Below are positions 2,581-61,145 of a stretch of DNA of 64,000 nucleotides, piece by piece (the stretch's first letter is position 1; every line of letters begins with the position of its first letter). Position numbers and translations under genes: made by a program. Source of the stretch: Stegostoma tigrinum. Its lineage: Eukaryota. The stretch is from positions 27,964,116 to 28,028,115 of the forward strand of contig NC_081363.1 in the NCBI RefSeq assembly GCF_030684315.1, given 5' to 3'. The notes under the pieces are model-generated. The model had not been told where the DNA came from and did not search any database. It saw only the letters and a program-made list of their open reading frames with translations.

Positions 2581-3131
2581 AACCCATCTGCATGCGGGCA
2601 ATAAGTGAACGTTATATATTTCAAAACTTGTAGCAAGCACACACACAAAAGGTGCGGATAGGGAGGCACTTGAGTGGCTTCAAATCTTTGGATTGGGCAA
2701 ATAGTCAATGCTGTATTCTTGCAGAAATTCTGGGAAAGACCAGGAGAAGAATTATGCAAATAATTAATGTTTGCATGTAGAAACCCGAGAAAAGAGTTGG
2801 GGCGGGGGAGTCACTTGCGTTTGTTTTTTAAAAAAAAGTTACTTATCGGAGTTTAGAAGAATGACAAGTAACCCGATTGAAACGTCGAAGATCCTTAGGG
2901 GGCTTGACAGGGTACAAAGAGTACAAGCAGGTTGTTTCCCCTGATGGGAGAGTCCAGGACCAGAGGGCATCATCCCCTGAGTAAGGAGACACCCATTTAA
3001 AGTGAGGCAATAGCCTAGTGGTATTATTGTTGGACCATCAATCTACAGACCCAAGTAACGTTCTGGGGATAATAAAATGTGAGGCTGGATGAACACAGCA
3101 GGCCAAGCAGCATCTCAGGAGCACAAAAGCT

Positions 3132-3159
3132 GACGTTTCGGGCCTAGACCCTTCATCAG
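3132..3159 (-). ncRNA. Minimal hammerhead-ribozyme-like motif (PLE family 1)
   Basis: Reverse complement reads CUGAUGA-A-GGGU-CUAG-GCCC-GAAA-C-GUC; stem I is only about 2 bp. Confidence 0.6.
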
Positions 3160-4592
3160 AGAGGGGGATGGGGGGAGGGAACTGGAATAAATAGGGAGAG
3201 AGGGGGAGGCGGACCGAAGATGGAGAGTAAAGAAGATAGGTGGAGAGGGTGTAGGTGGGGAGGTAGGGAGGGGATAGGTCAGTCCAGGGAAGACGGACAG
3301 GTCAAGGAGGTGGGATGAGGTTAGTAGGTAGCTGGGGGTGCGGCTTGGGGTGGGAGGAAGGGATGGGTGAGAGGAAGAACCGGTTCGGGAGGCAGAGACA
3401 GGTTGGACTGGTTTTGGGATGCAGTGGGTGGGGGGGAAGAGCTGGGCTGGTTGTGTGGTGCAGTGGGGGGAGGGGATGAACTGGGCTGGTTGAGGGATGC
3501 AGTGGGGGAAGGGGAGATTTTGAAACTGGTGAAGTCCACATTGATACCATATGGCTGCAGGGTTCCCAGGCGGAATATGAGTTGCTGTTCCTGCAACCTT
3601 CGGGTGGCATCATTGTGGCAGTGCAGGAGGCCCATGATGGACATGTCATCAAGAGAATGGGAGGGGGAGTGGAAATGGTTTGCGACTGGGAGGTGCAGTT
3701 GTTTGTTGCGAACTGAGCGGAGGTGTTCTGCAAAGCGGTCCCCAAGCCTCCGCTTGGTTTCCCCAATGTAGAGAAAGCCGCACCGGGTACAGTGGATGCA
3801 GTATACCACATTGGCAGATGTGCAGGTGAACCTCTGCTTAATGTGGAATGTCATCTTGGGGCCTGGGATGGGGGTGAGGGAGGAGGTGTGGGGACAAGTG
3901 TAGCATTTCCTGCGGTTGCAGGGGAAGGTGCCGGGTGTGGTGGGGTTGGAGGGCAGTGTGGAGCGAACAAGGGAGTCACGGAGAGAGTGGTCTCTCCGGA
4001 AAGCAGACAGGGGTGGGGATGGAAAAATGTCTTGGGTGGTGGGGTCGAAACAACTGCACCTCCCAGTCGCAAACCATTTCCACTCCCCCTCCCATTCTCT
4101 TGATGACATGTCCATCATGGGCCTCCTGCACTGCCACAATGATGCCACCCGAAGGTTGCAGGAACAGCAACTCATATTCCGCCTGGGAACCCTGCAGCCA
4201 TATGGTATCAATGTGGACTTCACCAGTTTCAAAATCTCCCCTTCCCCCACTGCATCCCTCAACCAGCCCAGTTCATCCCCTCCCCCCACTGCACCACACA
4301 ACCAGCCCAGCTCTTCCCCCCCACCCACTGCATCCCAAAACCAGTCCAACCTGTCTCTGCCTCCCGAACCGGTTCTTCCTCTCACCCATCCCTTCCTCCC
4401 ACCCCAAGCCGCACCCCCAGCTACCTACTAACCTCATCCCACCTCCTTGACCTGTCCGTCTTCCCTGGACTGACCTATCCCCTCCCTACCTCCCCACCTA
4501 CACCCTCTCCACCTATCTTCTTTACTCTCCATCTTCGGTCCGCCTCCCCCTCTCTCCCTATTTATTCCAGTTCCCTCCCCCCATCCCCCTCT

Positions 4593-4620
4593 CTGATGAA
4601 GGGTCTAGGCCCGAAACGTC
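4593..4620 (+). ncRNA. Minimal hammerhead-ribozyme-like motif (PLE family 1)
   Basis: CUGAUGA-A-GGGUCUAGGCCC-GAAA-CGUC; predicted cut after C4620; stem III is reduced to palindromic ACGU. Confidence 0.6.
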
Positions 4621-5078
4621 AGCTTTTGTGCTCCTGAGATGCTGCGTGGCCTGCTGTGTTCATCCAGCCTCACATTTTATTATCTTGGAATCTCCAGCAT
4701 CTGCAGTTCCCATTATCTCTAACGTTCTGGGGACCTGGGTTTGAATCCTACCATGACAGCTGTTGGAATTGGAATTCAATAAATACCTGGAATTAAGAGG
4801 CTAATAATGACTATGAACCCGTTGTTGGAAAAATCCATCTGGTTTACTCATTCCTTTTAGGGGAAGTAACTGCCATCCTTACCTAGTCTGGCCTACATGT
4901 GACTCCAGACCAACAGCAATGTGGTTGACTCAGGGCAATTATGGAATAAATGCTGGCCTAGCTAGCCACACCCTCATCCTGTAAATGAATTTTAAAAATT
5001 TAAAAAGTGATGGGGATTTTTTTTTCCTCTGGGGATGATGAACCTGGAATTCTCTAACACAGAGCTGTCAAAGCTATG

Positions 5079-6656
5079 ATAATGGGAACTGCAGATGCTG
5101 GAGAATCCAAGATAATAAAATGTGAGGCTGGATGAACACAGCAGGCCCAGCAGCATCTCAGGAGCACAAAAGCTGACATTTCGGGCCTAGACCCTTCATC
5201 AGAGAGGGGGATGGGGTGAGGATTCTGGAATAAATAGGGAGAGAGGGGGAGGCAGACCGAAGATGGAGAGAAAAGAAGATAAGTGGGGAGATAGGGAGGG
5301 GATAGGTCAGTCCAGGGAAGACGGACAGGTCAAGGAGGTGGGATGAGGTTAGTAGGTAGGAGATGGAGGTGCGGCTTGGGGTGGGAGGAAGGGATGGGTG
5401 AGAAGAACAACAGGTTAGGGAGGCAGAGACAGGTTGGACTGGTTTTGGGATGCAGTGGGTGGAGGGGAAGAGCTGGTTGTGTGGTGCAGTGGGGGGAGGG
5501 GACAAACCGGGCTGGTTTTGGGATGCAGTGGGGGAAGGGGAGATTTTGAAGCTGGTGAAGTCCACATTAATACCATTGGACTGCAGGGTTCCCAAGCGGA
5601 ATATGAGTTGCTGTTCCTGCAACCTTCGGGTGGCATCATTGTGGCACTGCAGGAGGCCCATGATGGACGTGTCATATAAAGAATGGAAGGGGGAGTGAAA
5701 ATGGTTTGCGACTGGGAGGTGCAGTTGTTTATTGCGAACCGAGCGGAGGTGTCCTACAAAGTGGTCCCCAAGCCTCCGCTTGGTTTCCCCAATGTAGAGG
5801 AAGCCACACCGGGTACAGTGGATGCAGTATACCACATTGGCAGATGTGCAGGTGAACCTCTGTTTAATGTGGAAAGTCATCTTGGGGCCTGGGATGGGGT
5901 GAGGGAGGAGGTGTGGGGGCAAGTGTAGCATTTCCTGTGGTTGCAGGGGAATGTGCCGGGTGTGGTGGGGTTGGAGGGCAGTGTGGAGCGAACAAGGGAG
6001 TCACGGAGAGAGTGGTCTCTCCAGAAAGCAGACAGGGGTGGGATGGAAAAATGTCTTGGGTGGTGGGGTCGGATTGTAGATGGCGGAAGTGTTGGAAAAT
6101 GATGCATTGTATCCGGAGGTTGGTGGGGTGGTGTGTGAGAACGAGGGGGATCCTCTTTGGGCGGTTGTGGCGGGGGCAGGGTGTGAGGGATGTGTTACGG
6201 AAATGCGGGAGACGCGGTCAAGGGCATTCTTGACCACTGTGGGGGGAAAGTTGTGGTCCTTGAAGAACTTGGACATCTGGGATGTGCGGGAGTGGAATGC
6301 CTCATCGTGGGAGCAGATGCGGCGGAGGCGGAGGATTTGGGAATAGGGGATGAAATTTTTGCAGGAGGGTGGGTGGGAGGAGGTGTATTCTAGGTAGCTG
6401 TGGGAGTCGGTGGGCTTGAAATGGACATCAGTTACAAGCTGGTTGCCTGAAATGGAGACTGAGAGGTCCAGGAAGGTGAGGGATGTGCTGGAGATGGCCC
6501 AGGTGAACTGAAGGTTGGGGTGGAAAGTGTTGGTGAAGTGGATGAACTGTTCGACCTCCTCTGGGTAGCAAGAGGCGGCGCCGATACAGTCATCAATGTA
6601 ACGGAGGAAGAGGTGGGGTTTGGGGCCTGTGTAGGTGCGGAAGAGGGACTGTTCCA
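5079..6656 (-). mobile_element. 5'-truncated Penelope-like element B (RT C-terminal half + GIY-YIG, frameshifted)
   Basis: RT motif FLRYIDDCIG and thumb FLDLSV...TDVHFKPTD in ORF 6001-6702; GIY-YIG in ORF 5158-5931; TSD CTGTCAAAGCT(A/G)TG at 5065-5078 and 6657-6670. Confidence 0.92.
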
Positions 6657-8217
6657 CTGTCAAAGCTGTGTTATTAAATAAATTCAGGCCTGAGATAGAC
6701 ATACAGGTTTTTAATCATTAAGGGAATCGAAAGTTGTGAGGATAAAGCAGGAAAGTGAAACTGCGGATTAATGGATCAGCCGTTAACTCATCAAATGGTA
6801 GTGTCGACTTCTCCTCCTACATCTTATGGCCACATAGGAATTGAAACTCTCTGCCCTTCCTTGGAAACACTTTCACCTAGCTGGTGTTTATCACCTTGTG
6901 TCTAGTATCCCTTTTTCCTTGATTCACCTAACTAATCTGATCTTGACTATTAGCAAAGTTTTGCCTCAACCACCACTCTCAGAAATTTCTCAGTTGTGGA
7001 AGTGTTTGTACAGAAGTTTTCCTTGGCTTCTTTTTGCCCTGAGCAATATTGATTCCTTAGCCAAAATCACTAAAAATGAGCACATATATCTTATCTCACT
7101 GCTGTTGGCACAGCATTGCTGTATGCACATTGGTTACATTGCCTAGAATTTGACAGTGACTATACTTCAGGATTTGTTTGGCTGTAAAATGCTTTCTGAC
7201 ATTCAAAGACAGTGAAGAGGTCGATATAAATAGTTCTTTCTTCAAATCTCTTGCAATTTATGCCGCCTTTTCTTGATATTAATTGAAGTAGTCAGCACTT
7301 ATCGCGTAATGAGATCTGGTCTTATGGACGAAGTTGGTCTTTTTTTTCCTCTGTGTGCTTACTTTCTGAATGACAGACTGAGAGAGACTCAGTGCCTCTA
7401 CCCGAGAAAGCAGGATGAGACGAAAACTAAAGCAGGAGAAACAAATAATTTAATGGGAAGATTGTAACGTTTTCAGAAAGATGGTTTTAATTTCAAACTT
7501 TTTGATTATTTAAGCCACTGATGAGATTTTCTATATTCCAATTTTCTCTTTTGATCCCAAGTAGTGAATTTGTGCCATGATATTTTGAATAGGTTTTTAA
7601 CTATGTTGCAGTTTTACAAGTCAACTTTAATGTTGGAAAATATTTATTGAAGCTAGTCAACTGTTTAGTGCTAAGGCTATTGTGCACAATGCTAACATTC
7701 TACTGTTGAAGATACTAATCAGCAGAATATTAGCTGACAGTTATTATGTAATGAATTGACTGTCTAATATGCGATCAGTTGATAATATTATAAACAGAGT
7801 ATGTAATTAGAATTTTGACAGCAGCGTCAGTCCACTCAGTTGAAATACTTGGCTGCCAAGCCAAAGTTGCTAAAAAAAATTAATAAATGAATCCACAATG
7901 TAACAAAAAGCATGTGGTAGTCATTAAAAAAAGTCTTCAGATCAGAGAACCAGCAGTCTTCCTGGAACTCATTTTCCATTGGAACTCATTGCAAGACTGA
8001 GTAACTGTTCCTTCAGGTGTTAGTATATTGCCGTCTTGGTGCAGCCTTTTGCACTATTTGTAATTTATAACCACCTTTAGGTGATGGTGTGCAATTCACA
8101 AATGTATGCACAGATAGGGCTCATGTCACTTGTATACATGGATTAAAAAATCATAGATATAATTTTTCTCTTAAATTGTCAGAGACAATAAATGGTCAAA
8201 ATAAATGTGTATTCTTG

Positions 8218-10500
8218 AGAGAGATAATAGGAACTGCAGATTTTGGAGAATCCAAGTTAACAAAGTGCAGAGCTGGATGAACACAGCAGGCCAAGCGGCA
8301 TCTTAGGAGCAGAAAAGCTGACGTTTCGGGCCTAGACCGAAATGGGGGAGGGGGAGAGAGTTCTGAAATAAATAGGGAGAGGAGAAGATGGGTGGAGAGC
8401 AGATGGACAAGTTAAAGAGGCTGCATGGAGCCAGTAGAGGTGAGTGTAGGTAGGGAGGGGATAGGTCAGTCCGGCGAGAACGGACAAATCGAGGGTGCGG
8501 GATGAGGTTAGTAGGTCGGAAATGGAGGTGCGGCTTGAGATGGGAGGAGGGGATAGGTGAGAGGAAGAACAGGTTAGGGAGGCGGGGACGAGCTGGGCTG
8601 GTTTTGGGATACACTTAAAGGAGGGGAGATTTTGAAGCTTGTGAAATCCACATTGATACCAGTGGGCTGCAGGGTTCCCAAGCGGAATATGAGTTTCTGT
8701 TCCAGCAGCCTTTGGGTGGCATCGTTGTGGCACTGCAGGAGGCCCAGGACGGACATGTCGTCTAAGGAGTGGGAGGGGGTGTTAAAGTGGTTCGTGACTG
8801 GGAGGTGCAGTAGCTTAATGCGAACCGAGCAGAGGTATTCTGCGAAGCGGTTGCGAAGCCTCCGCTTGGTTTCCCCAATGAGGAGGCCACACCGGGTACA
8901 GTGGATGTAGTATACCACATTGGCAGATGTGCAGGCAAACATCTGCTTGATATGGAAAATTTTGGGGCCTGGGATGAGGTGAGGGAGGAGGTGTGGGGAC
9001 AGGTGTATACTGCATGGGCCCAAACTATGCCTGCCTCTTTGTAGGGTACGTGGAACAATCCCTCGTCCGTACCTACACTGGCCCTAAACACCACCTCTTC
9101 CTTCATTACATTGATGACTGTATCGGCACTGCCTCGTGCTCCCACAAGGAGCTCGAACTGTTCATCCACTTTACCGACACCTTCCACCCCAACTTCGAGT
9201 TCACCTGGACTATCTCTAACACCTCCCTCGCTTTCCTGGATCTCTCAGGCAAGCGCCTAGAAACCAATATCCATTTCAAGGCCACCGGCTCCCACAGCTA
9301 CTTAGAATACACCTCCTCCCACCCACCTTCCTGCAAAACTGCCATCCCCTGTTCCCAATTCCTTCGACTCTGCTGCATCTGCTCCTAGAATGAGGCATTC
9401 CACCCCAGTACATCTCAGATGTCATTGTTTTTCAAGGACCTCAACTCACCACCCCATCCCCTACCCCCATGGTCGAGAATGCCCTCGACCGTGTCTCCCG
9501 CATTTCCCGCAACACATCCCTCACATCTGGTCCCCCTCGTCCTTGCGTACCACCCCACCGACCTCTGGATCCAATGCTTCATCCTCCAACCCCACCACCA
9601 AAGACATTTTTCCATACCCACCCTTGTTTGCTTTCCGGAGGGACCACTCTCTCCATGACTCCCTTGTCTGCTCCACACTCCCCTCCAACCCCACCACACC
9701 CAGCACTTTTCCCTGAAGCCACAGGAAGTGCTACACTTGCCCCCACACCTCCTCCCTCACCCCCATCCCAGGCCCCAAGAAGACTTTCCACATCAAGCAG
9801 ATGTTCACCTGCACCTCCGCCAATGTGGTATACTGCGTCCACTGTACCTGGTGTGGCTGCCTCTACATTGGGTAAACCAAGCAGAGGCTTGGCAGCCGCT
9901 TTGCAGAACACCTACGCTCGGTCCGCAATAAACAACTGCACCTCTCAGTCACGAACAATTTCAACTTCCCCTCCCATTACTTAGACGACATGTCCATCCT
10001 GGGTCTCCTGCAGTGCCGCAATGATGCAGGAACAGCAACTCATATTCCACTTGGGAACCCTGCAGTCCAACGGTAACAATGTAGATTTCGCAAGCTTCAA
10101 AATCTCCCCTCCCCCAAGTATATCCCAAAACCAGCCCAGCTCGTCCCAGCCTCCCTAACCTGTTCTTCCTCTCACCTATCCCCTCCTCCCACCTCAAGCC
10201 GCACCCCCCATTTTCCACCTACTATCGTTATCCCGCCCCCACGACGTGTCCATCCTCCCCAGACTGACCTATCCCCTCCCTACCTACACTCTCCTCAACT
10301 GGTTTCATCCCCATCTCTTTAAATTGTCTGTCTCCTCTCACCTATCTTCTCCTCTATCCTCCCCCCCGCCCCATTTATTTCAGACCCCTTTCCCCCTCCC
10401 CCATTTCTGATGAAGGGTCGAGGCCCGAAACGTCAGCTTTTCTGCTCCTAAGATACTGCTTGGCAAGCTGTGTTCATCCAGCTCTACACTTTGTTATCTC
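8218..10500. mobile_element. Penelope-like element fold-back insertion C (older, decayed)
   Basis: Left arm (-) about 8218-9008 with GIY-YIG; right arm (+) about 9009-10500 with RT MGPNYACLFVGYVE...HYIDD and GIY-YIG carrying stops; TSD GTGTATTCTTG at 8207-8217 and 10501-10511. Confidence 0.9.
10407..10434 (+). ncRNA. Minimal hammerhead-ribozyme-like motif (PLE family 1)
   Basis: CUGAUGA-A-GGGUCGAGGCCC-GAAA-CGUC. Confidence 0.55.
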
Positions 10501-10632
10501 GTGTATTCTTGGTATGTACAGAGCTTATGTAGATATAAGATCCGCATGATATGCAGATAGGAATGCAGCACTGTTTAATCAGGAATTTGGCTTCTGTATT
10601 TGAGTTTCCTTTGTTTTTCTTTCCTCAGCATA

Positions 10633-10769
10633 ATGAGTCTCATTAACATTGTACGTGAACATTGGACAAATATCCTTGTTCCTCTGGGATTTGTGTTGGG
10701 ATGTTATCTTGACAGAAGAAACGACAGCAAGCTTACTGCTTTTAGAAACAAAAGTTTGTTGTATAAACG
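10633..10769 (+). CDS. NDUFB1: NADH:ubiquinone oxidoreductase subunit B1, coding exon 1 (exon 2)
   Basis: Translates [45 protein letters not shown](R), matching vertebrate NDUFB1; acceptor ttcctcag at 10628, donor CG|GTGAGT. Confidence 0.96.
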
Positions 10770-10859
10770 GTGAGTGAGAGATTTACAGTTTGATTCCATA
10801 TTTTCTTATTTACAGATTAATTTGTACAGCTGCAAAGCCCTTATTTATTTTAATCCATG

Positions 10860-11092
10860 ACGGGGAGGTGCCAGTGTTGAATCGGGTGGACAAAGTCGGA
10901 AGTCAGAAGACGCCAGGTTACAGTCCAATAGGTTTATTTGAAATCGCAAGCTTTTGGAGTACTGCTCCTTCGTCAGGTGAAGTGACGGGAAGCACACATG
11001 CGCAGAATTTATAGACAGTGATTTCTCTTGTGCTTCTGTTTTCAAATAAACCTGTTGGGCTGTAACCTGGGTGTCATGTGACTTCTGACTTT
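10860..11092. mobile_element. Short palindromic element, family 3, with a decayed hammerhead-like core on the minus strand
   Basis: Arm 10892-10943 is the imperfect reverse complement of 11040-11092; minus strand 10980-10944 reads UCAC-CUGACGA-A-GGAG-CAGUA-CUCC-AAAA-GCUU-GCGA. Confidence 0.65.
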
Positions 11093-11944: not shown

Positions 11945-12975
11945 CATCATAAGACTGTAAGAGCTAAAAAACAGCCATTCAGTCCAGAGTCTACTCAGCC
12001 ATTCAATTAGCTGACAGCCAATCTGATAATCCTCAATTCGACTCTTCTGCCTTTTCCTGATTACTCTTGATTCCCTTACTCATTTAAAAAAAAATCCGTC
12101 TAACTCAGCCTTGAATATACTAAATAACCCAGCCTCTACCAGCCCTCTGTGGTAAAGAAAACCACAGATTCACTGAAATAAAAACAAAATACTGCAGATG
12201 CTGGAAGTCTAAAATAAGCGCAGAAAGTACTGGAGAAATTCAGCAGGTCTGATTGCGTCTGTGGAGAGAGTTCTGAAGAAGCGTCAAATCGAACACAAAA
12301 TGTTAACTTTGTTTCTGTCTCTTCAGATGCAGCGTTTCTCCTGCTTTTCTGTGTTTGTTCCATAAATTCACCCATTACCATCTGAGAGGAGAAATTCCTC
12401 CTCATCAGTCTTAAATGGGCAACCCCTTGTTTTGAGATTTATGCCCTCTTGTCCAAGACACTCCCACAGGGGGAAACAATCTTTCTGCATCTATCAATTC
12501 CTCTAAGAATCTTGTATGTTTTTGATGACATCGCCTCTTGTTCTTCTAAATTGCAATGGGTACGGGCCCAACCTACTCAACCTCTCATAAGACAGTCCCT
12601 TCTGGGAAATGCCAAGTAAATTCTGTTTCCAGTGCCAGTACTTGTTCCCTAGATAATGGGCCCAGAACTGTTCAATGCAGATGTGGTCTGACTCGTACCT
12701 TGTACAGGTACTGTACTAGTGCAAGACCTCCCAGTTCTACTCCTCATTCCCTTTGAAATGAAGACAGACATTCCATTTGTCTTCCATGTTACTTGCTGAA
12801 CGTTGTTGCTAAGTGTTTGTGATTGCCACACAAGGATGCCCAAATCCTTCTCTGCTGTAACTTTCTACAGTCTTTCACACCAAAATTATGTTCAGCTTCT
12901 CTATTCTTCCTGTTAAAGTTTAAAGTTTTGACAAAGAAGTCTTGTTAAAGTGCATAACCTCATATTTTGCTACAC
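11945..12975 (-). mobile_element. CR1-type LINE 3' fragment, interrupted by a family 2 palindrome
   Basis: Reverse strand gives CR1 ORF2-end motifs (MRRNFSSQ.., gagaaattcctcctcatc, ttgaaatgaagacagacattccatttg). Confidence 0.7.
12174..12359. mobile_element. Short palindromic element, family 2, with a decayed hammerhead-like centre
   Basis: actgcagatgctggaa...ctggagaaattcagcaggtctg arm; centre AGUU-CUGAAGA-A...-UGUU-AACU; imperfect TSD ccacagattcac/ccataaattcac. Confidence 0.65.
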
Positions 12976-17609: not shown

Positions 17610-18780
17610 AGAACTATGAACATGTCCCCATCTATAATAAAGGGAGCAGAGATTGAAAGCATCAAGTTCCTAGGAATGACAATAACCAACAACCCGTCCT
17701 GAACTTTCCACATAGATGGTCAAGAAGGCGCAACAAAGATTCTTGCTCAGACAGCTTAGGAAATTTAGCATGTCCACAAGGTCCCTCACCAACTTTCACA
17801 GATGCGCCACACAAAGCATAATAACAGGTACATTACGGCCTGGTATGGCAAATGCTCTGCCAGGACCACAAGAAACTACAGAAGGTTGTGTGCACAGCCA
17901 GACCATCATGGATGCCAACCTTCTATTAATGGACTCCATTTACACTTCTTGCTGCTGTGGAAAGGCTGCCAAGATCAACAAAATGTCTCCCACCCCGGTA
18001 ATGCTCTCATACAACCTCTTCTGAGCAGAAGATACAGAAGCTTGTGCCCCCCTCCTGAGATGCTGCTTGGCTTGCTGTGTTCATCCAGCTCCACACTTTG
18101 TTGCCTTCAAGGCAACAGGGAAGCTACTCCTGAAACTGATCAGCAGATGCAAGGTATTCCGCACGGAAACAGACCCTTCGGTCCAACTTGTCCATGTCGA
18201 CGATAAGAATTACATTTCTATACTCTCATGCTTCCCCAACTTCTAATCTGTGCTGCCGTAACTGCTGAGAAATTCCAGCAGTTTTTGTGGGTTTTGTTTT
18301 TCAGATTTCCAGCATCTGCAATTTATTTGGGATAATGGGAACTGCAGATGTTGTAGAATCCAAGATAATAAAATGTGAGGCTGGATGAACACAGCAGGCC
18401 CAGCAGCATCTCAGGGGCACAAAAGCTGACGTTTCGGGCCGAGACCCGATGAAGGGTCTAGGCCCGAAACGTCAGCTTTTGTGCCCCTGAGATGCTGCTG
18501 GGCCTGCTGTGTTCATCCAGCCTCACATTTTATTATCTTGGAATCTCCACACACGTACGAACAGGTTCAAGAACGGTTTCTTCCCTGCTATTATTAGACT
18601 GATGAATGGACTTTCTAACTTCAAAAAGGTGATCCTCCTGCGCAGTGTAACCTGTATGCCTCATTCTATTTAAGCACCCTAAGTTCTGTATATCCCTGCT
18701 TACTATAATCTGCTAGTGCTGCTCACAAACAAAGCTTTTCACTGTACTCAGGTACACGTGACTACAATAAATCAAATAAA
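17610..18780 (+). mobile_element. Rex1/Babar-like LINE 3' fragment interrupted by a templated insertion at about 18048-18549
   Basis: VKKAQQR..LRQLRKF..LTNFHRC..AWYG..; RRYRSLC|TRTNRFKNGFFPAIIRLMN is continuous across the insertion; ends aataaatcaaataaa. Confidence 0.65.
18331..18549. mobile_element. Mini palindromic PLE family 1 element (duplicated copy)
   Basis: Two PLE 3' termini, head to head around the 6-nt loop GATGAA (18448-18453). Confidence 0.85.
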
Positions 18781-18859: not shown

Positions 18860-19470
18860 AAATGAAAGAACTGCGGATGCTGTAAATCAGAAACACAAAG
18901 TTGCTGGAAAAGTTGAAGGGTCTAGGCCTGAAACGTCAGCTTTTGTCCTCCTGAGATGCTGCTTGGCTTGCTGTGTTCATCCAGCTCCACACTTTGTTGC
19001 CTTCAAGGCAGAGATCGACAAATTCTTGATCTCAGAAGGAATCAAGGGCTACGGGGAGAGTGCAGGGAAGTGGTGTTGAAATGCCCATGAGCCATGATTT
19101 AAATGGCAGAGTGGATTTGATAGGCCGAATGGCCTTACTTCCACTCCTATGTCTTATGGTCTTATGGTTATGCTGGAAAAGTTCAGCAGGTCTGGCAGCA
19201 GCCGTGAAGGAAAAAAAGAGCTAATGTTTCAGGTCTGATGACCCTTCCCCAGAACTGTCCTGAAGCTACTCCTGAAACTGATCAGCAGATGCAAGGTATT
19301 CCGCACGGAAACAGACCCTTCGGTCCAACTTGTCCATGTCGACGATAAGAATTACATTTCTATACTCTCATGCTTCCCCAACTTCTAATCTGTGCTGCCG
19401 TAACTGCTGAGAAATTCCAGCAGTTTTTGTGGGTTTCGTTTTTCAGATTTCCAGCATCTGCAATTTATTT
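18860..19470. mobile_element. Family 2 fold-back element containing nested insertions
   Basis: Left arm 18860-18914 + 19184-19256; right arm about 19390-19470 (ttccagca...tcagatttccagcatctgca). Confidence 0.6.
18915..19170 (+). mobile_element. Chimeric PLE-terminus/CR1-3'-end insertion
   Basis: PLE family 1 terminus 18915-18999 fused to a CR1 3' end with a (cttatggt)n tail; 13-bp TSD TGCTGGAAAAGTT at 18902-18914 and 19171-19183. Confidence 0.75.
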
Positions 19471-19472
19471 GG

Positions 19473-19714
19473 GATAATGGGAACTGCAGATGTTGTAGAA
19501 TCCAAGATAATAAAATGTGAAGCTGGATGAACACAGCAGGCCCAGCAGCATCTCAGGGGCACAAAAGCTGACGTTTCGGGCCGAGACCCGATGAAGGGGC
19601 TAGGCCCGAAACGTCAGCTTTTGTGCCCCTGAAATGCTGCTGGGCCTGCTGTGTTCATCCAGCCTCACATTTTATTATCTTGGAATCTCCAGCATCTGCA
19701 GTTCCCATTATCTC
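19473..19714. mobile_element. Mini palindromic PLE family 1 element, about 240 bp
   Basis: gataatgggaactgcagatg...gagaccc-gatgaa-ggggctaggcccgaaacgtc...catctgcagttcccattatc; both ends are complete 3' termini. Confidence 0.88.
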
Positions 19715-24704: not shown

Positions 24705-24776
24705 ATTAACTTTGGTGAGGCCGCACCTAGAATATTGTGTGCAGTTTTGGCCTCCTTTTCTGGAAAGGATGCTCTT

Positions 24777-24815
<39 letters not shown>

Positions 24816-25312
24816 GAGAGAGAGAGAGAGAGAGAGAGCAGCAAAGGTTTACTAGGCTGATCTAGGGATGGTGGGATGGACGTATGGGGAGACATTGATG
24901 AGGTTACAATTGTTTTTGCTGGACTTCAGATGAATGAGGGGGGGATTCTCACAGAGACTTATAAAATTCTAACATGACTGAACATGGTAAATGCAGGGAG
25001 GATGTTCCAGATGGTGGCTGTGTCCAGAACCAGGGGTCACAGTTGAGGATTGGGGTAGACCGTTTACGATGGAGATGAGGAGACAATCCTTCACCCAAAG
25101 AGTGGTGAGCCTTTGGAATTCATTACCACAGGAAGTAGTTGTTGTGAAAACATTGAATGTATTCAAGAGGCAGCTAGATATAGCATTGGGGGTGAATGGA
25201 ATCAAAGGTTATGTGGAGAAAGCAGGACTAGGCCATTGAGCTGGATGAATGTGATGAATGGTGGAGCAGGCTCAAAGCACCAAATGTCGTCCGCCTGCTC
25301 CTATCTTCTATG
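24705..25312 (+). mobile_element. CR1-type LINE 3' fragment
   Basis: LVRPHLEYCVQFW.. and EMRRQSFTQRVVSLWNSLPQEVV..FKRQLD motifs. Confidence 0.85.
24776..24840. repeat. (CT)n-(GA)n self-complementary microsatellite
   Basis: tgc(tc)n-tgagt-(ga)n-gca seen directly. Confidence 0.9.
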
Positions 25313-26099: not shown

Positions 26100-27850
26100 T
26101 TTGCAACTTGCATGTGAAATGGGAAAATGAATTTGTTAACAACGGTAAAAGGTGAGAGCATTTGCTTTGTACATTACTAGAGTATATTGTCAAATAATAA
26201 GGAAAATTTGGATCAACATTATCCAGTAATACACAGTAAATTCTATGATAGGTCTGCCTTGAATGGAATGCTTTTGACAAAGGTGACAGTTGAAGCCCAC
26301 TTTAAAAGTTTGACTGTAATATTTTTCAAAACCAGCAAAAGGTAAGACCCGTGCAGAACACTGTTCTATTTCACCTTTGCCATCTTCTGGCAAAACATAA
26401 GAAATCATTCACGGATGGCTAGTTACTAAAGAAGCAATGACCATGACCATTGACTGTTTGTTCAAAGACTATTAAAATTAAGTAATGATGGCAGTCTGGA
26501 GCATGTCTTTTGGTGCTTTCACAGTAGCAAGACAAGTGGAATCTTTGTCCGAAGATGTCTTTCATCAAGTAGAGTAAGAACTGATGGAATATGAACTCAT
26601 CTTGTTGCAGTTTGATGAATCCGTCATCCCAACACAGCCCCGCTGATTGGTTTTGTGGGTGTGGTTTTTAAGGACATTGTAATTAAAGAGAATCCGCTCA
26701 CCTTTTGCACATTAAAGATAATAAAGGATGAGGATATCTGCAATCAATTGAAAGGCTACGTGCTTGAGAAAAACATTGCAATCAAGAAATTGACTTCCAT
26801 TGCAGCTAATGGTGCACCAGCCATGCTTGATACAAATGCAGGTTTTGTTGCATTTTTCAGATATGATCCTCATTTTGTCATTGTCAATTACTGCCGTATA
26901 ATCCACCAGCAAGCAAAGGCTAGCCAAGTTATGGACATTTCTCATGTAATGGCAGTTGTTAAGTTTGTAAACTTGATTCAAGCAAGAATCCTTCAGCACT
27001 ACTTGCTTAAATCCTTATTCAGCAAATTTGATGCTGCCTACAGTGAACTAAGCCTCCATGCTGAATTGAGGTGTTTAAGTCAAGGGAAGTTCTACAGAGG
27101 TTTTTTTTTTAAATCTGATGTCTAAAGTTATTATTTAAATGAAGAACAGAAGTATACAGTAAGCTATCAGATAATGCATAGTTGATTGTCTTCGGCATTG
27201 ATATAATGTGAAAAATGAATGAGCTGAACTGTAAACTGTAAGAAAAGGGCTGAGACATACTCATATGATCAGTGCTGTGAATGGCTCAAAGTGAAACTGG
27301 GTCTGTTGTCTTCCCAATTAAAAAACAAAACACTGCAACACTTCCGGAATCTAGAGAAAATACTAAGGAAAAAATAAAAGACAAAGAAAAATGGTTCCAT
27401 CCAAACAACTTCAATGCACACCTGAGGAAGTTAGCAGGGAATTTCAGGAATTTAGTGTGATGGAGCAGGTCATTGTGTTTGCTGTGAGTCTTTCCCTTCA
27501 AATAGACATTAGTGGATTGGCTACCAGATTCCACCAGGAATTTGATTTACAAGGCAGTGGAGTTGATATGGAGATCATTACTATGCAAAATGATCTTGAG
27601 TTGAAAGTCAGAAAAGGGATTTCTGGCAACTCAAAATCATGGAAAAATACCGACGTTTGTCATCTTGTCCTTTTAAAGCAAAAGCTTACTTTGATTCCAT
27701 ATACCTCTGTGAGACAGCATTCTCCAAAATTAAGATAAGCATCACAACTGCCAAACATTTGATGCGTTGCATATGATTTGCAGTCTCAAACTACAACCCA
27801 GACTTCAATGGAAGGTAATGTGCAGTCACGGTTGGTATATTGAGACTTGG
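26100..27850 (+). mobile_element. Decayed hAT transposase (SPIN/Charlie/GTF2IRD2-like)
   Basis: ORF 26655-27125 has LTSIAANGAPAM (TDGAPAM-like), CRIIHQQ (HCIIHQ-like) and ELRCLSQGK (RWLSRG-like); many stops and frameshifts; TIRs not identified. Confidence 0.8.
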
Positions 27851-27989: not shown

Positions 27990-29400
27990 TGGAGACCATT
28001 CATCTCGATGGTAGTGGTTTTGAAAGGTGCTGTCTGTGAAAGCTTAGTGAATTTCTATAGTGCATTTTGTAGGTCGAACACACCGCTGCTACTGCATCGA
28101 CAGAATGTGGATGTGGTGCCAATCATGCAGGCAATTTTGTCCTGGATGGTGTCAAGCTTCTTGAGTATTGTTGGAGTTGCACTCATCTAGGCAAGTGGAG
28201 AGTATTCCATCACATTCCTGACTTCCATCTTGTTGATGGCAAACAAGCTTCAGGAAATCAGGAAAAGAGTTACTTGCTAAAACCTAGCCTTTGACCTCAG
28301 AAGCCACTGTATTTATTTTGTTAGTCCTGTACAGTTTCTGGTAAGTGATAAGCCCTATGATGTTGATTATCAGGGATTCGCTGATGGTAATACTGTTTCA
28401 TGTCAAGGGTGATGGTTAGATACTCTTTTGTTGGAGATGATCATTGCCTAGCACTTGTATGGCATAAATGTTCTTTGACACTAGAGTCATAGAGCTGTGC
28501 AGCTTGGACTGTATAGCACACTAATCAGCCTAAACCTGGCCATTGTCTAGATTGCTGCATTAAGATCATAAGCTGTTTCAGTATCTGAGGGGTTGCAAAT
28601 GGTTCTGAACATTTTACAATCATTAGCAAACATCCCTATTTCTAACCTTATAGTGGAAGAAAGGTCTTTGATGAAGTAGCTGAAGATGTTCAGGCCTCTG
28701 ACACACTTGCAGAGTTGAGGGGAGGTGGAGCTGAGGTGAGTGCAGAGATTCCACTGACTACAGTTTTGCTTGGGCTCCTTTACACCACACTCAGATAAAT
28801 TTGACCTTGATGTCAAGGACACTCATCTCCTCATTGCTGCAATTTGGCTGCTCTGATCATGTTTGAACTGAAGCTGCAATGAGGTCATGTGCTGACTAGA
28901 TTCGGTAGATTCAAACTGAGTGTTAATGAGCCGGTTATTACTAAGCAAATCCTGTTTGATAACCCTGCTGATGACACCTTCCATCACTTTACTAATGATT
29001 GAAATTAGACTGAGGGATTGGTAATTGACTGGGTTAGATATGTCTTACTTTTTGTATACCGGACGGACATGCCAGGATTTTTTTCACAGATGGCAGTAGC
29101 TGTACTGGAATAGCTTGGCTGGAGGCATGGCAAGTATTCAATACTATTGCCAGAATGTTGTCAGGACCCACAGCCTTTTTAGCATCCAGTGCCCCCATTT
29201 GTTTCTTAATATCATGTGATATCATGAATTGACTGGAAACTGGCAACTGTTATGTTGGGGACCTCCAGAGTAGGCAAAGATGGATTACCCACTCTGCACT
29301 TCTGGCTGACGATTGTTCCAAATGTTTCAGCTTTAACTTTTGCACTAATGTACTGGGCTCCTCCAATATTAAGGATGGGGTTATTTGTAGGGCTTCTCCT
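27990..29400 (-). mobile_element. Decayed LINE (CR1/L2 group) RT fragment
   Basis: ALDAKKAVGPDNILAIVLNTC and FIKDLSS..IGMFANDC (FADD-like) on the minus strand. Confidence 0.65.
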
Positions 29401-36887: not shown

Positions 36888-37060
36888 AACAAAAAAACCA
36901 GTGTATGACAGATGCTAGAAATCAGAAACAAGAACAGAAATTGCTGGAAAAACTTAGTAGGTCTGGCAGCTTCTGTGGAGAGAAGAGTCACTGGAAGCGT
37001 TAACTCTGCTTTCTCTGCACAGATGCTGCCAGACCTGCTGAGTTTTTCCAGCAATTTCTG
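36888..37060. mobile_element. Short palindromic element, family 2
   Basis: Arm 36935-36984 is the near reverse complement of 37011-37060; the centre retains gtcactgga..cgttaactctg. Confidence 0.75.
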
Positions 37061-37283
37061 ACATTGTTATGGAAATCATAGCATCAAGCTGTTTAACCAG
37101 ACCTTGACCACTAGGTGACACTATTGCTCATTTTCTGGTATGGGATAAAGAATGCAAAACGAAATGAATTTATGTGAAAGTAAGTTGATTTAAAAGTTAA
37201 CACAATGTTACAGCACAGAATGAGAATTTGCTTTGAAAATTTCATAGATGTAATGAATAACTTGTGCTTTCTTTTCTGGGCAG

Positions 37284-38134: not shown

Positions 38135-39185
38135 TAAAAACAGAAAGTGCTGGAGAAACTCAGCATGTCTGGATTACTGTTTCAAGTCTGGTATAATGCC
38201 TTTTTCACTGAAGCTGAATGGACAGTTAAGGTTTTTATGCTGTTGACAAAGGGGGAGATGGAGCAGTTGGAACAGATGGTGAGGGACACGATAGCAGAAT
38301 AATAGTCCCAAAATATGCTAACAATTCTGTCCTGGGCCTGCTGCATGCTCCAGTGAAGCTCAATGCAAGCTTAAGAAACAGCAAAGTGTGGAGCTGGATG
38401 AACACAGAAGGCCAAGCGGCATCTTAGGAGCACAAAAGCTGACGTTTCAGGCCGAGACCCTTCATCAGAAAAGATTTTTCTGATGAAGGATCTAGGCCCG
38501 AAATGTCAGCTTTTGTGCTCCTAAGATGCTGCTTGGCCTTCTGTGTTCATCCAGCTCCACACTTTGTTATCTTGGATTCTCCAGCATCTGTGGTTCCCAT
38601 TATCTCTTAAGAAACAACACCTTATTTTCTGCTTACAATCGTCAGGACTCAACATTGAATTCAACAGCTTCAGTGCATGAATTCCGTTCTCCTTTTTGAT
38701 AACATCTTCTCTCAACAACCCCTCACCAGTGGTTTGTTTGCTCTCAGTAAAGCTGATCTATTTTCTACTAATAAATTTTACTCAAGAAACTACTTAGTGC
38801 TACCTACAGTGGCACCATAAGTGGTGACTTATAAACTTTTCACTATACTTGTGAGTAAGTGACAATAAAGCTAATTCAATTCAATTTACTATGAATGCCT
38901 ATTTTGTATTGATAGTCTTCCTCTATTACCATTAGCACTCTCTTTGTCCCTTGCTGTGGCAACCTTCATAGTTTGTGCCACTCGCTCCTCTCATTCTTTG
39001 TCAACAGCACAAAAACATGACTTGCAGCCCATTTCAATTCTGAAGAATAGTAATTTCAGATCAACATATGCTTCTGCCTTAACTCTATTTCTCTCTCTTC
39101 AGATGCTGCTGGACCTGGGCTTTCTCCGCACATTATGTTTTTATTTTAGATTGATCACCAGTGTTGTTGTACTTAACTTTCATTT
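38135..39185. mobile_element. Old family 2 PLE fold-back with a GIY-YIG C-terminal remnant
   Basis: Family 2 termini at both ends in inverted orientation; internal VLGLLH..AQCKLKKQHLIFCL..GLNIEFNSF resembles IMGLLH..TRRLQEQQLIFRL..GINVDFTSF of element A. Confidence 0.6.
38381..38605. mobile_element. Mini palindromic PLE family 1 element nested in the older PLE
   Basis: Inverted termini around aaaag-a-ttttt; hammerhead-like cores on both strands (38440-38468 -, 38480-38507 +); TSD CTTAAGAAACA at 38370-38380 and 38606-38616. Confidence 0.88.
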
Positions 39186-46120: not shown

Positions 46121-47170
46121 CATAAGACTTAGGGACATAAGTTAGATAATTTGGTCCATCGCGTCTGATTTGCCATTCTGAAAGATCTGATTGACCTCAA
46201 CCCCCTTTTTTTTGCTTTATCTCCTTAACCTTATCTCCATAATCTTACTGATTAAAAATCTGATTGGCTTTGCCTTAAATACATGTAACAACCCAACCTT
46301 TACAGCTGTCTGCAGTAAGGAATTCTGCAGATTTGCTATCCTCAGAAATTCCTCCTTATCTCTGTCTTAACTATCTTAATTCCTAGCATTGAGATGATGT
46401 CCTCTGGCCTTAGACTCTTCCACAAGGGAAAACTTCCTTCCTGCATCTACCCTGTAAATCTTCCTAAGAATCCTGTATATTTCAATAAGGTCACTTATAT
46501 TTCTCACCGCCAATGAGTACATGCCCGACCTACTTAACCCCTCCTCATAACAAAATAGTTCCATACCTGGAATCAACCTTGTGAAGCTTTTCTGGACCAC
46601 CTGTAATGCCAGTACATCTCTGCTAGATAAAGGGACCTAAACAGTCCACAGTATTCCAGTGTGGTCTGACTAGTGCCTTGTGTAGTTCAAGCAAGACTAC
46701 CTTTTTCTCATACTCTATTCCTTTTTGAAATAAAAGCCAACATTCTGTTAGCCCTCACTATTGCCTGATGAACTAGGATGATAACTTTTTTATGATTAAT
46801 GCGCAAGGATCCCAAATCCCTAAGTGCTGTAGCTTTCTGCAGTCTCTCCATTTAAAGGATATTCAGCTTCTGAATTCTTCCTGCCTAAGTGAACAATGTG
46901 ACATTTTCCCACATTATATTCCATCTATCAAGATTTTGCTGTCTCACTTAACCTGTCTATATCCCTCTGCAGACTTTTTTGTATCATTCTCACCACTTGC
47001 CTTCTCAGTTATTTTTTGTATCATCTGCAAACTTGGCTGTAGTGTGTTCACTTCTCTCATCCAGGTCATTAATATACATGCTAAGTAACTGTGGCCCCAG
47101 CACTGATCCCTGTGGCACTCCATTAATTACAAATTGATATCCTAAAAACAGTCCCCTTGTCACAACTCTG
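46121..47170 (-). mobile_element. CR1-type LINE 3' fragment
   Basis: VQKSFTRLIPGM..YEEGLSRSGMYSL..DLIEIYRIL; minus-strand PQGSVLGP-like motif near 47110. Confidence 0.8.
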
Positions 47171-51100: not shown

Positions 51101-52407
51101 TTAGGAGAAATTGGGAGGCAAAAAATTATATCAAAAATTGACCTGCAGAATACAATTTGAATTATTGGTAAAACCTTCCACAAATTATACTGTACTTGGT
51201 TATTATACTACAGAAACAATAGCAATGCAAAAGGATAAAATTAATAGAAAGGTAACATTTTTCTCCCTCTGGCTTTACATTGAATTTTGGTGGGTTGCTG
51301 TGTGGATTCAATTTAATCTGAACAAAACTGACGAAATCGCTGCTGTGTAGCATTTTGTGGTTGTAAATTGAGCAACGAAAAGCAGAAGGCATGATTTCAA
51401 AATGACAGAAACTGAAATCCATGTATTTGTTCCTTTTGCAGTGCTACATTTGTATTATTCTCTTCTGAAAGAATTGATTCTTTTCGGAGAAGCTGTATTT
51501 TCTTGCATGGCCATCTTTCGTGCTATCTTTTACAGTAATATTCTTCCACAAGCTGTTTATAAGCTGTTGTCCCACATTTGTTCTTCAGCCAATCTCAATC
51601 CTGTCCTCTTCTGATGTAATATCATGCTAACCTGCCGCAGGGTTTGATCCCTGGCTTTTTTTTTCCCTGTTTTGGGTGAGCAGCTTTCAAACTATTCGTT
51701 GAATTGTAGAGCCTTTTAGATCCTCCTTTCTCAGATTGAAGTGAGCCAATCCAATACAAGCTAAGAGTCTAACTTGGATCTTTCTTGATTAGATTTACAT
51801 TGGAACCCTAGTGTTTGCAGTCTCAGCCAAGTAAATTGATCTTATTGATCATTTACTAGTTACCCATTCTTAGCTTCGACATTAAATAGGATACAAATTG
51901 TAGCATAAATTCACTATTTGCATTATCTGTTATTGTCTTGTACCTTTTTATATGAATACTGGAACCTCTCTCCAGTTGCTCCCAGAAGCATCTCCATTCC
52001 TTTCCAATAGAGTACATCCTCCCATGGTCTCAGCCTCATTTATCAGCTCAGCTGGCCAACATAGCCTTCATATTTCCTGTAATTTACCCAACAACAAAGC
52101 AGACAGGCTCGATGGGTCATTAGGCCTTTTGGGGTTCCTGTATATCTCTTCTCATCAGTTCCACACTTTTTTTTTCTCTGTCTAATTTTCAACTTTGGTC
52201 ATTTTTTAAATGTATATTTCCTGCCTTTTGCCAATTTGAATTTCTGTGGTATGCACAATCTGTGATCAGAAAGATCGATACTGGAACCTGTTTCGAGAAG
52301 ATGCACAATTTTAGTTTAGTTTCCTCACGGGTGAGGTTGTAGTTTTATTTTGCTACAGTTCTCTAATTACTAAATTGAATTGGTATTATGATGAAGTTTT
52401 TGCAGAC

Positions 52408-52504
52408 CTCTGATGAAGGGTCTAGGCCCAAAACGTCAGCTTTTGTGCTCCTGAGATGCTGCTTGGCCTGCTGTGTTCATCCAGCTTCATACTTTGTTAT
52501 CTTA
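52408..52504 (+). mobile_element. Solo PLE family 1 terminus starting at the hammerhead core
   Basis: ctctgatgaagggtctaggcccaaaacgtcagc...actttgttatctt. Confidence 0.85.
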
Positions 52505-58941: not shown

Positions 58942-59033
58942 CTGACATGACTGAACAAGAGCCGCCTCAAGCAGATGTGCTGAAGTTGTTAGAAGCTGAT
59001 GCCACTGATGATTCAAAAGGGGAAGGAAGTTAA
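58942..59033 (+). CDS. ATXN3: Ataxin-3 exon 11 (terminal)
   Basis: (A)DMTEQEPPQADVLKLLEADATDDSKGEGS-TAA aligns with human DAMSEEDMLQAAVTMSLETVRNDLKTEGKK; total CDS 1083 nt, 360 aa. Confidence 0.78.
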
Positions 59034-60224
59034 TATGAAAATGAATGTACCAGCAATAACTGTGTTCCCATTGCTGTTCTGCATGTACTGCATTCCACCT
59101 GTATTTCAGCCACAAAGATATATATGTTAAGAGAGAGAGAAAAAGACTATGTGCACTCTTTATGCAAAGAATGTTTGTGGTTGTCTTATGGGATAATCTG
59201 TAGTTAAAAGAAAATACAAGATTTCTTGTTTCTGAACTTCAGTTGTAGCACCTTATCTTCTGAAAAGCCCTCTTCATGCACAGTCTAATTAAGCAAATTA
59301 CAGAGAAGAAAGTCAAGATTTCATACCCATTTTAAAAAAAAATGTTTTTGGTATTTTCTGATTTACCAATGATGGGACCTAAAAAGGCAAGTACTGAAGT
59401 GCTTACTTTTTGTAAACATACTTTAATCTTCTTAACTACAGCCTATATTCAAATCAGGTTCACTTTAAACTTTGAATGCATCCAGAGAGATGATATGCAA
59501 CAAGTACTTGAGTTTTGTGGCATTTATGACGCTTCAAAGTTTGTAGAGCTGTTTTTATCATTGAATTTTGACCTTGTCTTGGTGTTTAATTGTTCTAACA
59601 CAAAGTTCCTGTTATGTTGAATGTATAGTGCAGAGCCATGCAGAATTTTTTTGAAGTCTTTAGTACTTGAACCTGTTCATTTCACTTTGAGAAGATCATA
59701 CCAGAGAACATAAATGTATAAAATGGAGTTCCAAGAATTAGGGAAACCTGCACTCAAGTAGTGTGCGGTGTGAGGTCAGCTTGATATTTTAAAGCAGATC
59801 GTGGGTTCATGTCATAATTTTCATTGGGAAATGTAAAAGAGCAAATGCTAGCTGTATGTACTTTACTGATAGTGTGCTGTAATCCTTATTGCATAATATA
59901 AACACAAAATTGCTGCGTGTTGAGAATTTTTTTGTTGCTTACACTACATAGTAATGTCTGTTTGAAGTTCGTGTTAGGATGGACCAAGATAAAACGAGAT
60001 AACCGGTTACAGTCTGTGTCCTTTCTTTGGCATGCTTTAAAAGTCTTAACCTTCAGATGAAAGTGGTTATTTGTCCATAGCTCTAACATAGGCCTTCTGA
60101 GTATTACTGTAATTCCTGCAGCTTAGTAACTATAGCATAGGACTGAAGAGTGAGGGTTCCAAGTCTGCACTGGCAGATTTTAAAGTTTCATTCAATAAGT
60201 CAAATAATAAGTGAGAATGAAGAA

Positions 60225-60560
60225 TGTTGGATAGGGTGAATAGCCAAAGTCTTTTTTCCGGGGTGGAGGAGTCCAAAACTAGAGGACATAGGCTTAAGGT
60301 GAGAAGGGAAAAATTTAGATAGGCTCTGAGGGGTAACTTATTCATGCAAAGGATGGTAATTGTATGGAACGAGCTGCCAAAGGAAATGATGGAGGCTGGT
60401 ACAATTACGGCATTGAAAAGGCATTTGGATGGGTATATGAATAGTAAGGGTTTAGAGGGATGTGGACTGAATGCTCGCAAACGGAACTAGGTCAGATTGG
60501 GATGCCTTTTCAGCATGGATGAGTTGGACCAAAGGGTCTTTTCCTGTGCCGTATGACTGT
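60225..60560 (+). mobile_element. CR1 3' fragment (in the putative ATXN3 3' UTR)
   Basis: tccaaaactagaggacataggcttaaggtgaga..tggaacgagctgccaaaggaa..gagttggaccaaagggtct. Confidence 0.8.
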
Positions 60561-60849
60561 ATAACTGACCATAACATTGCTGTCATTAAAAAAAAGTCGT
60601 CCATTAATGTAATTTTGGGTAATCAAGCTACCTTCCTCCAGTCCTCGGCGCTTACTACTTTCAAGGCAAGGAGGGTGAGTAATAAATGCAGGCTTATCTT
60701 TGCTGCCCATACCCAAGAACATATGTTAACTTGTTAGATACATTATTTTTAATTTAGTACAAATTTGAGGAAAAAATGACAGCACTTTTATTGTGTGCCT
60801 TTATTTCTCTCTTTGCTCAAACATTTTGACTTAAGTATGACAAAAAAAG

Positions 60850-61145
60850 ATTTTTTTTTGTCCAGTCATTGTCTTATACTCATCAGGACAATTCACAAGT
60901 GTACCCATTCAAAAGGAAAACTAACATTTATGTAGCAGGCAAGGAGAGTGCTGATGCATTGGTACTGACTGTAATTGGTAGAGGCATTGGCATAAGGCAT
61001 GCTCTTATTAATTTTGTGACAGCCATTCGCTCTACTGTCTTGACCAATGCCCTGCCCTGAGTCAACCTCCCTAGCTTAAAAATTAGTATTCTTGCAAAAT
61101 ATCCTGGTGAGTGTAAGATGAAAAGCTTTAACAAAATTTTTTGTG
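60850..61145. mobile_element. Diverged palindromic element, family 4, with a hammerhead-like core in each arm
   Basis: 60871-60905 reverse complement cttgtgaattgtcCTGATGAgtataagac vs 61091-61130 cttgcaaaatatcCTGGTGAgtgtaagatGAAAagcttt. Confidence 0.55.

Follow-up and report, generated by a model that had tools for sequence, protein, structure and literature searches.

In a stretch of 64,000 nucleotides from the zebra shark, Stegostoma tigrinum (RefSeq assembly GCF_030684315.1, contig NC_081363.1, positions 27,964,116 to 28,028,115; hereafter the window, from whose first letter all coordinates are counted), sequences that fold back on themselves recur, looking like MITEs (miniature inverted-repeat transposable elements) and carrying hammerhead-like ribozyme cores. 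Which elements left them behind, and do the smallest of them move on their own? A sequence-only reading had listed 12 such fold-backs in up to four families and ascribed them to two-ended insertion of Penelope-like elements (PLEs). Ten of the 12 stand as independent insertions, two of them weakly, whereas one is a local duplicate and another a doubtful composite. The fold-backs are probably dead-on-arrival insertions, that is, truncated two-ended footprints, of several PLE families that encode an endonuclease (EN+ PLEs).

Family 1 consists of inverted and single copies of a Penelope-like element

Self-comparison of the window bears out the family-1 palindromes. The loci are given below; the tail is a stretch of 33-37 nt, usually present on one arm only.

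F1a, 3068-4720: young head-to-head PLE insertion, centre 4047/4048; left arm on the minus strand, ~980 nt, no tail, with cysteine linker and GIY-YIG; right arm on the plus strand, ~670 nt, with tail
F1b, 8218-10500: older head-to-head insertion of another subfamily, centre near 9007; left arm ~790 nt with tail, right arm ~1490 nt without tail
F1c, 18331-18549: palindrome inside a patchwork copy, 18051-18549
F1d, 19473-19714: mini-palindrome, both arms tailed and both cut inside the hammerhead
F1e, 38381-38605: mini-palindrome with only the right arm tailed; each arm stops immediately 5' of the hammerhead
5078-6657, minus strand: single-orientation, 5'-truncated copy of 1.6 kb with reverse transcriptase (RT) motif YIDD, thumb, linker, GIY-YIG, 3' untranslated region, hammerhead (cut site 5175/5174, C3 at 5202) and a tail at 5078-5110
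908-1041, plus strand: solo short arm with tail, 5' end at the hammerhead edge
18914-19003, plus strand: solo short arm without tail, 5' end inside the hammerhead core
52403-52503, plus strand: solo short arm without tail, 5' end at the hammerhead edge

The arms of F1a are 99.8% identical across 637 bp and those of F1b 82% identical across 793 bp; F1d and F1e are 92-93% self-inverted, F1e with a short palindromic centre. The 5078-6657 copy and the three solo arms were missing from the earlier list. F1c was rejected as an independent insertion: 18120-18549 and 19262-19691 are 99% identical, a match that takes in 211 bp of flank, and 18051-18114 is the same as 18947-19010. Since F1c is a local duplicate of F1d with its flank, joined to a copy of 18947-19010, it is not counted as a second event. 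The patchwork, whose source lies ~900 bp downstream and from which ~250 bp are missing, sits in a LINE-like (long interspersed nuclear element) remnant and looks like templated break repair. F1d itself adjoins the 3' tail of a family-2 arm at 19462-19473, a tail-to-tail contact across families. At 18902-19183, a short family-1 arm is fused to a 3' end with a short tandem tail, which we take to be LINE-like, and the pair is bordered by a 13-bp duplication at 18902 and 19171. This single example could be a template switch or a chimera resembling a short interspersed nuclear element (SINE) with a PLE head.

The long arms code for the end of an RT (YIDD), a cysteine-rich linker and a GIY-YIG domain in one frame series, and the translation is 82% identical to a predicted zebra-shark protein. 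Among six long relatives scanned, GIY-YIG is present in all and RVT_1 lies upstream of it in five. The open reading frame (ORF) is truncated and frameshifted in the window, where Pfam scores fall mostly under the cut-off. This coding content argues strongly that family 1 is an EN+ PLE, in agreement with the origin first proposed for it. Between RT and endonuclease, the family-1 translations display the motif CxxxxCxxC. Such a cysteine-rich, zinc-finger-like linker marks Neptune elements and is common to Nematis (PMC8557442; this and the other literature is cited from the available parts of the papers), suggesting that family 1 is Neptune-like.

The coding link extends to family 2 in a more modest form. 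When the nested F1e is left out, the right arm of F2e yields 37 codons of an endonuclease C-terminus on the expected strand. The remnant is matched by 9 of 150 relatives (best E 7e-8, against a minimum of 8e-4 in 40 shuffles); tblastn with the family-1 relative had missed it, and it emerged only with the set of 150. Its profile hidden Markov model (HMM) score of 4.8 bits lies under the null top of 6.0, and no RT was found. One of 20 background stretches outscored the remnant, which we attribute to a LINE remnant in that stretch. Family 2 is probably an EN+ PLE. The two regions concerned are:

F2e right arm, 38334-38380 and 38617-38671, plus strand: putative C-terminus of a PLE endonuclease
47017-47169, minus strand: LINE-type RT remnant

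For families 3 and 4, each present in the window as a single short copy, neither the 150 relatives nor the profile HMM gave a coding match. By analogy they may work like EN+ PLEs, an assignment helped by their tail asymmetry and duplications of 12-13 bp. An NCBIfam search returned nothing useful.

Target duplications and one-sided tails recur across four families

Arm-versus-arm scores for families 2-4 were judged against 132-133 background windows, in which the maximum was 22-24.

F2a, 12174-12359: decayed family-2 fold-back, tail left, decayed hammerhead at 12273 in the right arm
F2b, 18860-19470: family-2-like arms with nested insertions, composite
F2c, 31270-31460: decayed family-2 mini-palindrome, tail on neither arm
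F2d, 36888-37068: family-2 mini-palindrome, tail left, hammerhead core broken at the centre
F2e, 38135-39185: old asymmetric family-2 fold-back interrupted by F1e
F3, 10854-11091: fold-back; left arm with a decayed hammerhead and ~35 extra nt (tail), right arm starting near the cut site without the ~35-nt tail
F4, 60835-61173: fold-back, heavily decayed, as are its two small hammerhead-like cores; the right arm reaches 22 nt further than the left

The scores of 56 (31271), 72 (36888) and 70 (10854) all exceed the background. The family-4 fold-back at 60850 is marginal, with a score of 26 and an RNA folding z of -3.96; its extra 3' stretch, 61153-61173, terminates in a small hairpin of 8 bp. 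The score of 18 at 12174 was reached by 17 of 133 background windows, and support for this locus comes from the family homology of both arms and a decayed 10/12 duplication. F2e retains two short inverted matches of 34 and 24 bp. In F2b there is no target duplication and the ends match at only 25 of 31 positions, so that a single fold-back event is doubtful there.

Target duplications of 11-14 bp were found at 6 of 11 loci tested:

F1a, 3056 and 4720: 14/14
F1b, 8207 and 10501: 11/11
F1e, 38370 and 38606: 13/14
F2a, 12162 and 12360: 10/12
F3, 10841 and 11091: 12/13
F4, 60823 and 61174: 11/12

The ends of F3 and F4 were moved to fit their duplications after these had been seen; in an unbiased wide scan the null probability is P<1/400 for family 3 and ~0.02 for family 4. 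At 19473, 18860, 31270, 36890 and 38135, a duplication was sought and none was found. The tail is one-sided in F1a, F1b, F1e, F2a, F2d and F3, with an equivalent of 22 nt in F4, whereas F1d has it on both arms and F2c on neither. The inverted copies stand head to head, and the earlier proposal of outward-facing 3' ends and a shared two-ended insertion is supported.

Hammerhead cores are intact only in long family-1 arms

A loose count of CUGANGA...GAAA gave 16 occurrences, barely above chance (mean 8, maximum 18), and a structured descriptor was therefore used. In its strict minimal form it matched three times, always in long family-1 arms, and never in 60 Markov sequences:

4593-4623, plus strand: intact family-1 minimal hammerhead core
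3159 (start), minus strand: its mirror
10407, plus strand: another intact core

With CpG decay allowed, nine matches were obtained (seven in family 1, two in family 2; null mean 0.017). Family-1 cores have an extra nucleotide after A9, the pair G10.1-C11.1 and a palindromic stem III; when two copies are folded as a dimer, the ACGU of one is predicted to pair with that of the other. The cores of families 3 and 4 were identified by eye from decayed arms and pass neither form of the descriptor. A hammerhead core in every family, as originally claimed, is found strictly in family 1, with CpG decay in family 2 and by eye only in the other two. Scoring with hammerhead models had been proposed as a check; Rfam gave no hammerhead match at E<=10 in the window, presumably because stem III and loop I are missing. 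Rfam microRNA matches were rejected as hairpin artefacts; they arise from an inverted CT/GA microsatellite that forms a hairpin at 24776-24840.

None of the mini-palindromes holds a strictly intact hammerhead, and both F1e arms are one change short of it. The RNA of F1e is predicted to fold as one hairpin of 91 bp (-172.8 kcal/mol) in which the hammerhead pairs with its own antisense copy, a fold that would bury the ribozyme.

Family-1 arms start and stop at three hot spots

Arm ends were read on the coordinates of the 5078-6657 copy, where C3 is at 5202 and the first base after the cut site is 5174. The 3' ends of 12 independent family-1 arms fall into two groups, seven at 5078 and five at ~5109-5117, one of the latter placed by its duplication where the aligner gave 5102. 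All seven independent short arms have their 5' end -8 to +3 nt from C3, and five long arms end 528-1455 nt upstream of it.

The same sites reappear in contigs of four public runs (X1, X2, X9 and X13) aligned to reference 5000-6700. What follows concerns the best 24 of 6337 loose-end entries, 15 of 677 joints and 12 of 457 joints with letters between; X1 and X2 counts are lower bounds, and contig depth was not used to rank element parts. In X1, where 375,883 contigs aligned to family 1, the largest loose-end sites listed are 5078 (at least 1052), 5110 (at least 661) and 5203 (at least 680). Those listed for X2 include 5078 (at least 1065) and 5203 (at least 687), those for X9 include 5078, and those for X13 include none of 5078, 5110 and 5203. 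Three breakpoint hot spots stand out: a pair of 3' ends separated by ~33 nt, and one 5' end, which lies at the edge of the hammerhead. A scan of metagenomes with a 20-nt family-1 pattern found two loci, probably by chance, and was set aside.

Contigs of X1 and X2 also contain the head-to-tail joints 5203>5110, 5202>5077 and 5191>5078. Such joints, from 5191-5203 back to 5077-5110, are partial tandems of the pseudo-long terminal repeat (pLTR) type; within the window itself no direct partial tandem of this kind was found. The hammerhead edge is probably the pLTR boundary and the 5' end of the RNA. Another head-to-tail joint, 5155>5077, has a summed depth of at least 917 in X1 and at least 485 in X2, far above single long pieces, and is apparently a direct partial tandem inherited by many copies. 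Two joints, 5174>5106 and 5174>5078 (depths 129 and 125; two of the seven listed for X1), start at the first base of the hammerhead cut product. Joints starting at 5174 are absent from those listed for the other runs, and they are only a hint of cut-site templates. Opposite-strand joints of the tail-to-tail class (5078/5111, 5077/5110 and 5077/5113) were also recovered, their direction being our reading of the coordinates.

Mini-palindromes are best read as one-off products

The suggestion that the 190-290 bp forms move alone fared less well. Four independent family-1 palindromes in the window have four different centres, and the only shared centre is that of the local duplication (F1c/F1d). 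Within a locus, arms match each other at 93-99%, at least as closely as arms taken from different loci, and share private variants. F1d clusters with long coding copies of the F1a type (96/93). F1e falls outside that cluster, and a tree that unites the mini-palindromes in one clade is rejected (p-AU 0.000124). Among the 15 of 677 joints listed, there is no opposite-strand joint near the hammerhead edge. Independent movement of the mini-palindromes is not supported, and they are best read as one-off run-off products. Identical centres at unrelated loci had been put forward as the decisive test. Because short arms stop at a common position in any case, a centre found at several loci would be no proof that palindromes move as units.

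A proposed two-ended insertion pathway and its rivals

The following pathway is the likeliest account of the fold-backs. The RT-GIY-YIG protein would cut the target with a stagger of 11-14 nt, a geometry suggested by the duplications. Each free 3' end would then act as primer for complementary DNA (cDNA), with the element RNA as template and either of two start sites; as these lie ~33 nt apart, usually one arm would be tailed. The two 3' ends are seen directly, and internal priming is known in vitro from an anole element; the use of both strands would be an extension to the shark. The cDNA would halt variably in the long template or run off at the 5' edge of the hammerhead, where the hot spot probably reflects the 5' end of the RNA or of the pLTR. 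Finally, the two cDNA ends would be joined head to head. Two run-off arms would give a MITE-looking palindrome of ~200 bp and one would give a solo arm, so that each mini-palindrome could be a new product of its own source element and would not have to move a second time. That internal priming and both-strand extension combine in one event is what we infer.

Several observations weigh against this pathway. F1d is two-tailed, and it is among the 5 of 11 loci that lack a duplication. A short motif containing TCT is common to the start sites and the hammerhead edge, and the 5' hot spot could arise from RT stalling at a C-rich tract or from microhomology. The tail-to-tail joints are the best-supported joint class (at least 113 contigs in X1 and at least 112 in X2). 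In X13, from another species, the internal opposite-strand joint 5567/6548 occurs in one contig at depth 291, the long pieces listed having depths of 15-28 in seven of eight cases and 280 in the eighth; it could be an amplified palindrome centre, and an inversion is possible too. The tree of mini-palindromes rests on 80 columns and two independent mini-palindromes, and only four independent family-1 centres were read, all in the window. Perfect palindromes may break or be invisible in such contigs. For this reason, and given that 15 of 677 joints are listed and counts are lower bounds, the missing dominant centre is weak evidence.

The same elements could instead make a single cDNA and obtain the second arm by self-priming, folding back on the antisense template, as proposed for rotifer PLEs (PMC3846280). 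Near-identical arms with private variants and the short palindromic centre of F1e would fit, and tail-to-tail joints are the hairpin with the tail as its loop that sense-strand self-priming predicts (PMC3846280). Self-priming should, however, give a symmetric centre, whereas the arms of F1a and F1b differ by ~340 and ~700 nt and their centres are abrupt; moreover, the two arms of a palindrome start at different 3' sites, and in vitro the anole protein acts on both strands, which it cuts and extends (PMC11167929). We regard this self-priming route as unlikely. A further departure from the two-ended pathway holds that some mini-palindromes are non-autonomous units copied whole, possibly through a circle or concatemer that closes the tail end to the tail-less end. 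In its favour, the junction in tail-to-tail joints corresponds to the usual palindrome circularly permuted, X13 has one deep opposite-strand joint, pLTRs can mobilise passengers in trans (PMC3846280) and non-autonomous PLEs exist (PMC8557442; bioRxiv 2026.07.22.740005). It has to contend with the differing centres, the lack of monophyly and of a strictly intact hammerhead, an RNA that folds as one hairpin, and the joints listed near the hammerhead edge, none of which joins opposite strands. The tail-to-tail joints are more simply explained by the tendency of PLEs to land in or next to copies already present (PMC6765202), as F1d does next to a family-2 3' end. Whole-unit copying seems very unlikely to us. 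A composite version, in which tail-to-tail joints close a self-primed hairpin or circle that is opened to give the usual one-tailed head-to-head unit, some mini-palindromes are recopied whole and a minority of copies is templated by hammerhead-cut RNA, with 5' junctions left precisely at the cut site, we consider rather improbable.

Families 3 and 4 raise a separate question, namely whether they are MITEs or terminal inverted repeats (TIRs) of DNA transposons with hammerhead-like motifs by chance. They lack a coding link, occur as single copies in the window, have cores that fail both descriptors and, in family 4, an arm score barely above background. On the other hand, their arms are offset from the ends by ~35 nt (family 3) and ~22 nt (family 4) on one side only, which TIRs are not, and their duplications of 12-13 bp are, as we take it, longer than in most DDE superfamilies. 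The order of stem I, CUGANGA, a G-C closing pair, GAAA, an AGCU palindrome and U agrees with that described for the minimal hammerhead of PLEs, and some of the changes from the core are of the CpG-decay type. Across the families, the inverted repeats are not flush with the ends and the duplications vary between 11 and 14 bp. A DNA-transposon origin for families 3 and 4 is highly improbable, and two-ended PLE insertion remains our preferred account.

Other features of the window

10630-10769, plus strand: NDUFB1-like coding exon (Pfam MNLL subunit, E 1.6e-24), noted together with a GC-rich stretch at ~2200-2560
28985-30347: recent tandem duplication of 689 bp, 99.3% identical
26619-27738: broken frames, presumably of a hAT-type transposase judging by eye; no Pfam match at E 0.01

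Upstream of the NDUFB1-like exon, an apparent intron contains F1a, F1b and the 5078 copy; F3 lies ~85 nt downstream of the exon. The pre-mRNA could therefore form long hairpins.

Comparison with known systems

PLE origin, outward 3' ends, minimal hammerheads and two-ended insertion have already been published (PMC8557442, PMC3846280, PMC4209133). No paper on mini-palindromes of shark PLEs was found by title and abstract start, a search outside which lay most subscription journals, Repbase and Dfam, and this does not show novelty. The architecture is real and largely known, here in shark PLE families without match to named entries. For annotation, the lesson is that the ends of shark PLEs resemble MITEs and might be filed wrongly; they also seed long double-stranded RNA hairpins, some of them in the apparent NDUFB1-like intron. 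With 375,883 contigs in one run, this very large shark family offers good material for work on the PLE integration pathway, as it allows large-scale counts of end positions, of tail-to-tail joints and of joints at the cut site. Unit mobility or ribozyme-cut templates, if true, would bear on the role of PLE hammerheads.

In size (~200-300 bp), inverted arms and target duplication, the fold-backs resemble MITEs. Unlike in MITEs, 3' ends of a retroelement make up the arms, a tail offsets them, the centres vary, the duplications are long and there is no transposase partner. Non-LTR retrozymes (bioRxiv 10.64898/2026.07.22.740005; PMC7229834), reported in one chondrichthyan, are likewise short, non-coding, PLE-related and hammerhead-bearing. 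They are direct tandem repeats with a hammerhead per unit, whereas the shark fold-backs are inverted pairs in which the ribozyme pairs with its antisense copy; self-comparison of the window found no direct tandem array of the retrozyme type.

Minimal type-I hammerheads occur in the fish PLEs Neptune, Poseidon and Xena, and in Schistosoma opposite-strand pairs of them lie 100-700 bp apart (Cervera and de la Pena 2014, PMC4209133). The cores described here, known from sequence alone, share with them the CUGANGA/GAAA core, an unpaired nucleotide between 9 and 10.1, the G10.1-C11.1 pair and the palindromic 15.2-16.2. They differ in that stem I of family 1 has only 2 bp, and family 4 seems to be without the extra nucleotide and has a stem II of 1-2 bp. 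In the anole Poseidon element PAc, two RT start sites are separated by the tail, both target strands are cut and extended, and the template is mainly RNA that has not been cleaved (Frangieh et al. 2024, PMC11167929). No RNA-seq reads begin or end at its hammerhead cut site, and cleavage is dispensable in vitro (PMC11167929). Family 1 shares the two start sites a tail apart, and is set apart by its Neptune/Nematis cysteine linker and, weakly, by two genomic joints that begin exactly at the cut site.

The closest counterparts are complex EN+ PLE insertions (Craig et al. 2021, PMC8557442; Arkhipova et al. 2013, PMC3846280; Schostak et al. 2008, PMC2377424). An inverted, 5'-truncated copy with a tail of 30-40 bp at one end is typical of PLEs (PMC8557442, PMC8969392, PMC2377424), and the shark insertions agree with the complex ones in the RT with C-terminal GIY-YIG, the head-to-head inverted copy, the optional one-end tail, target duplication, partial tandems and strong 5' truncation. 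Their duplications measure 11-14 bp, against 8-10 bp in rotifer PLEs. Published emphasis is on units with an ORF, whereas many units here consist only of two pLTR-sized arms, with 5' ends that cluster sharply at the edge of the hammerhead, a feature that the available parts of those papers do not mention.

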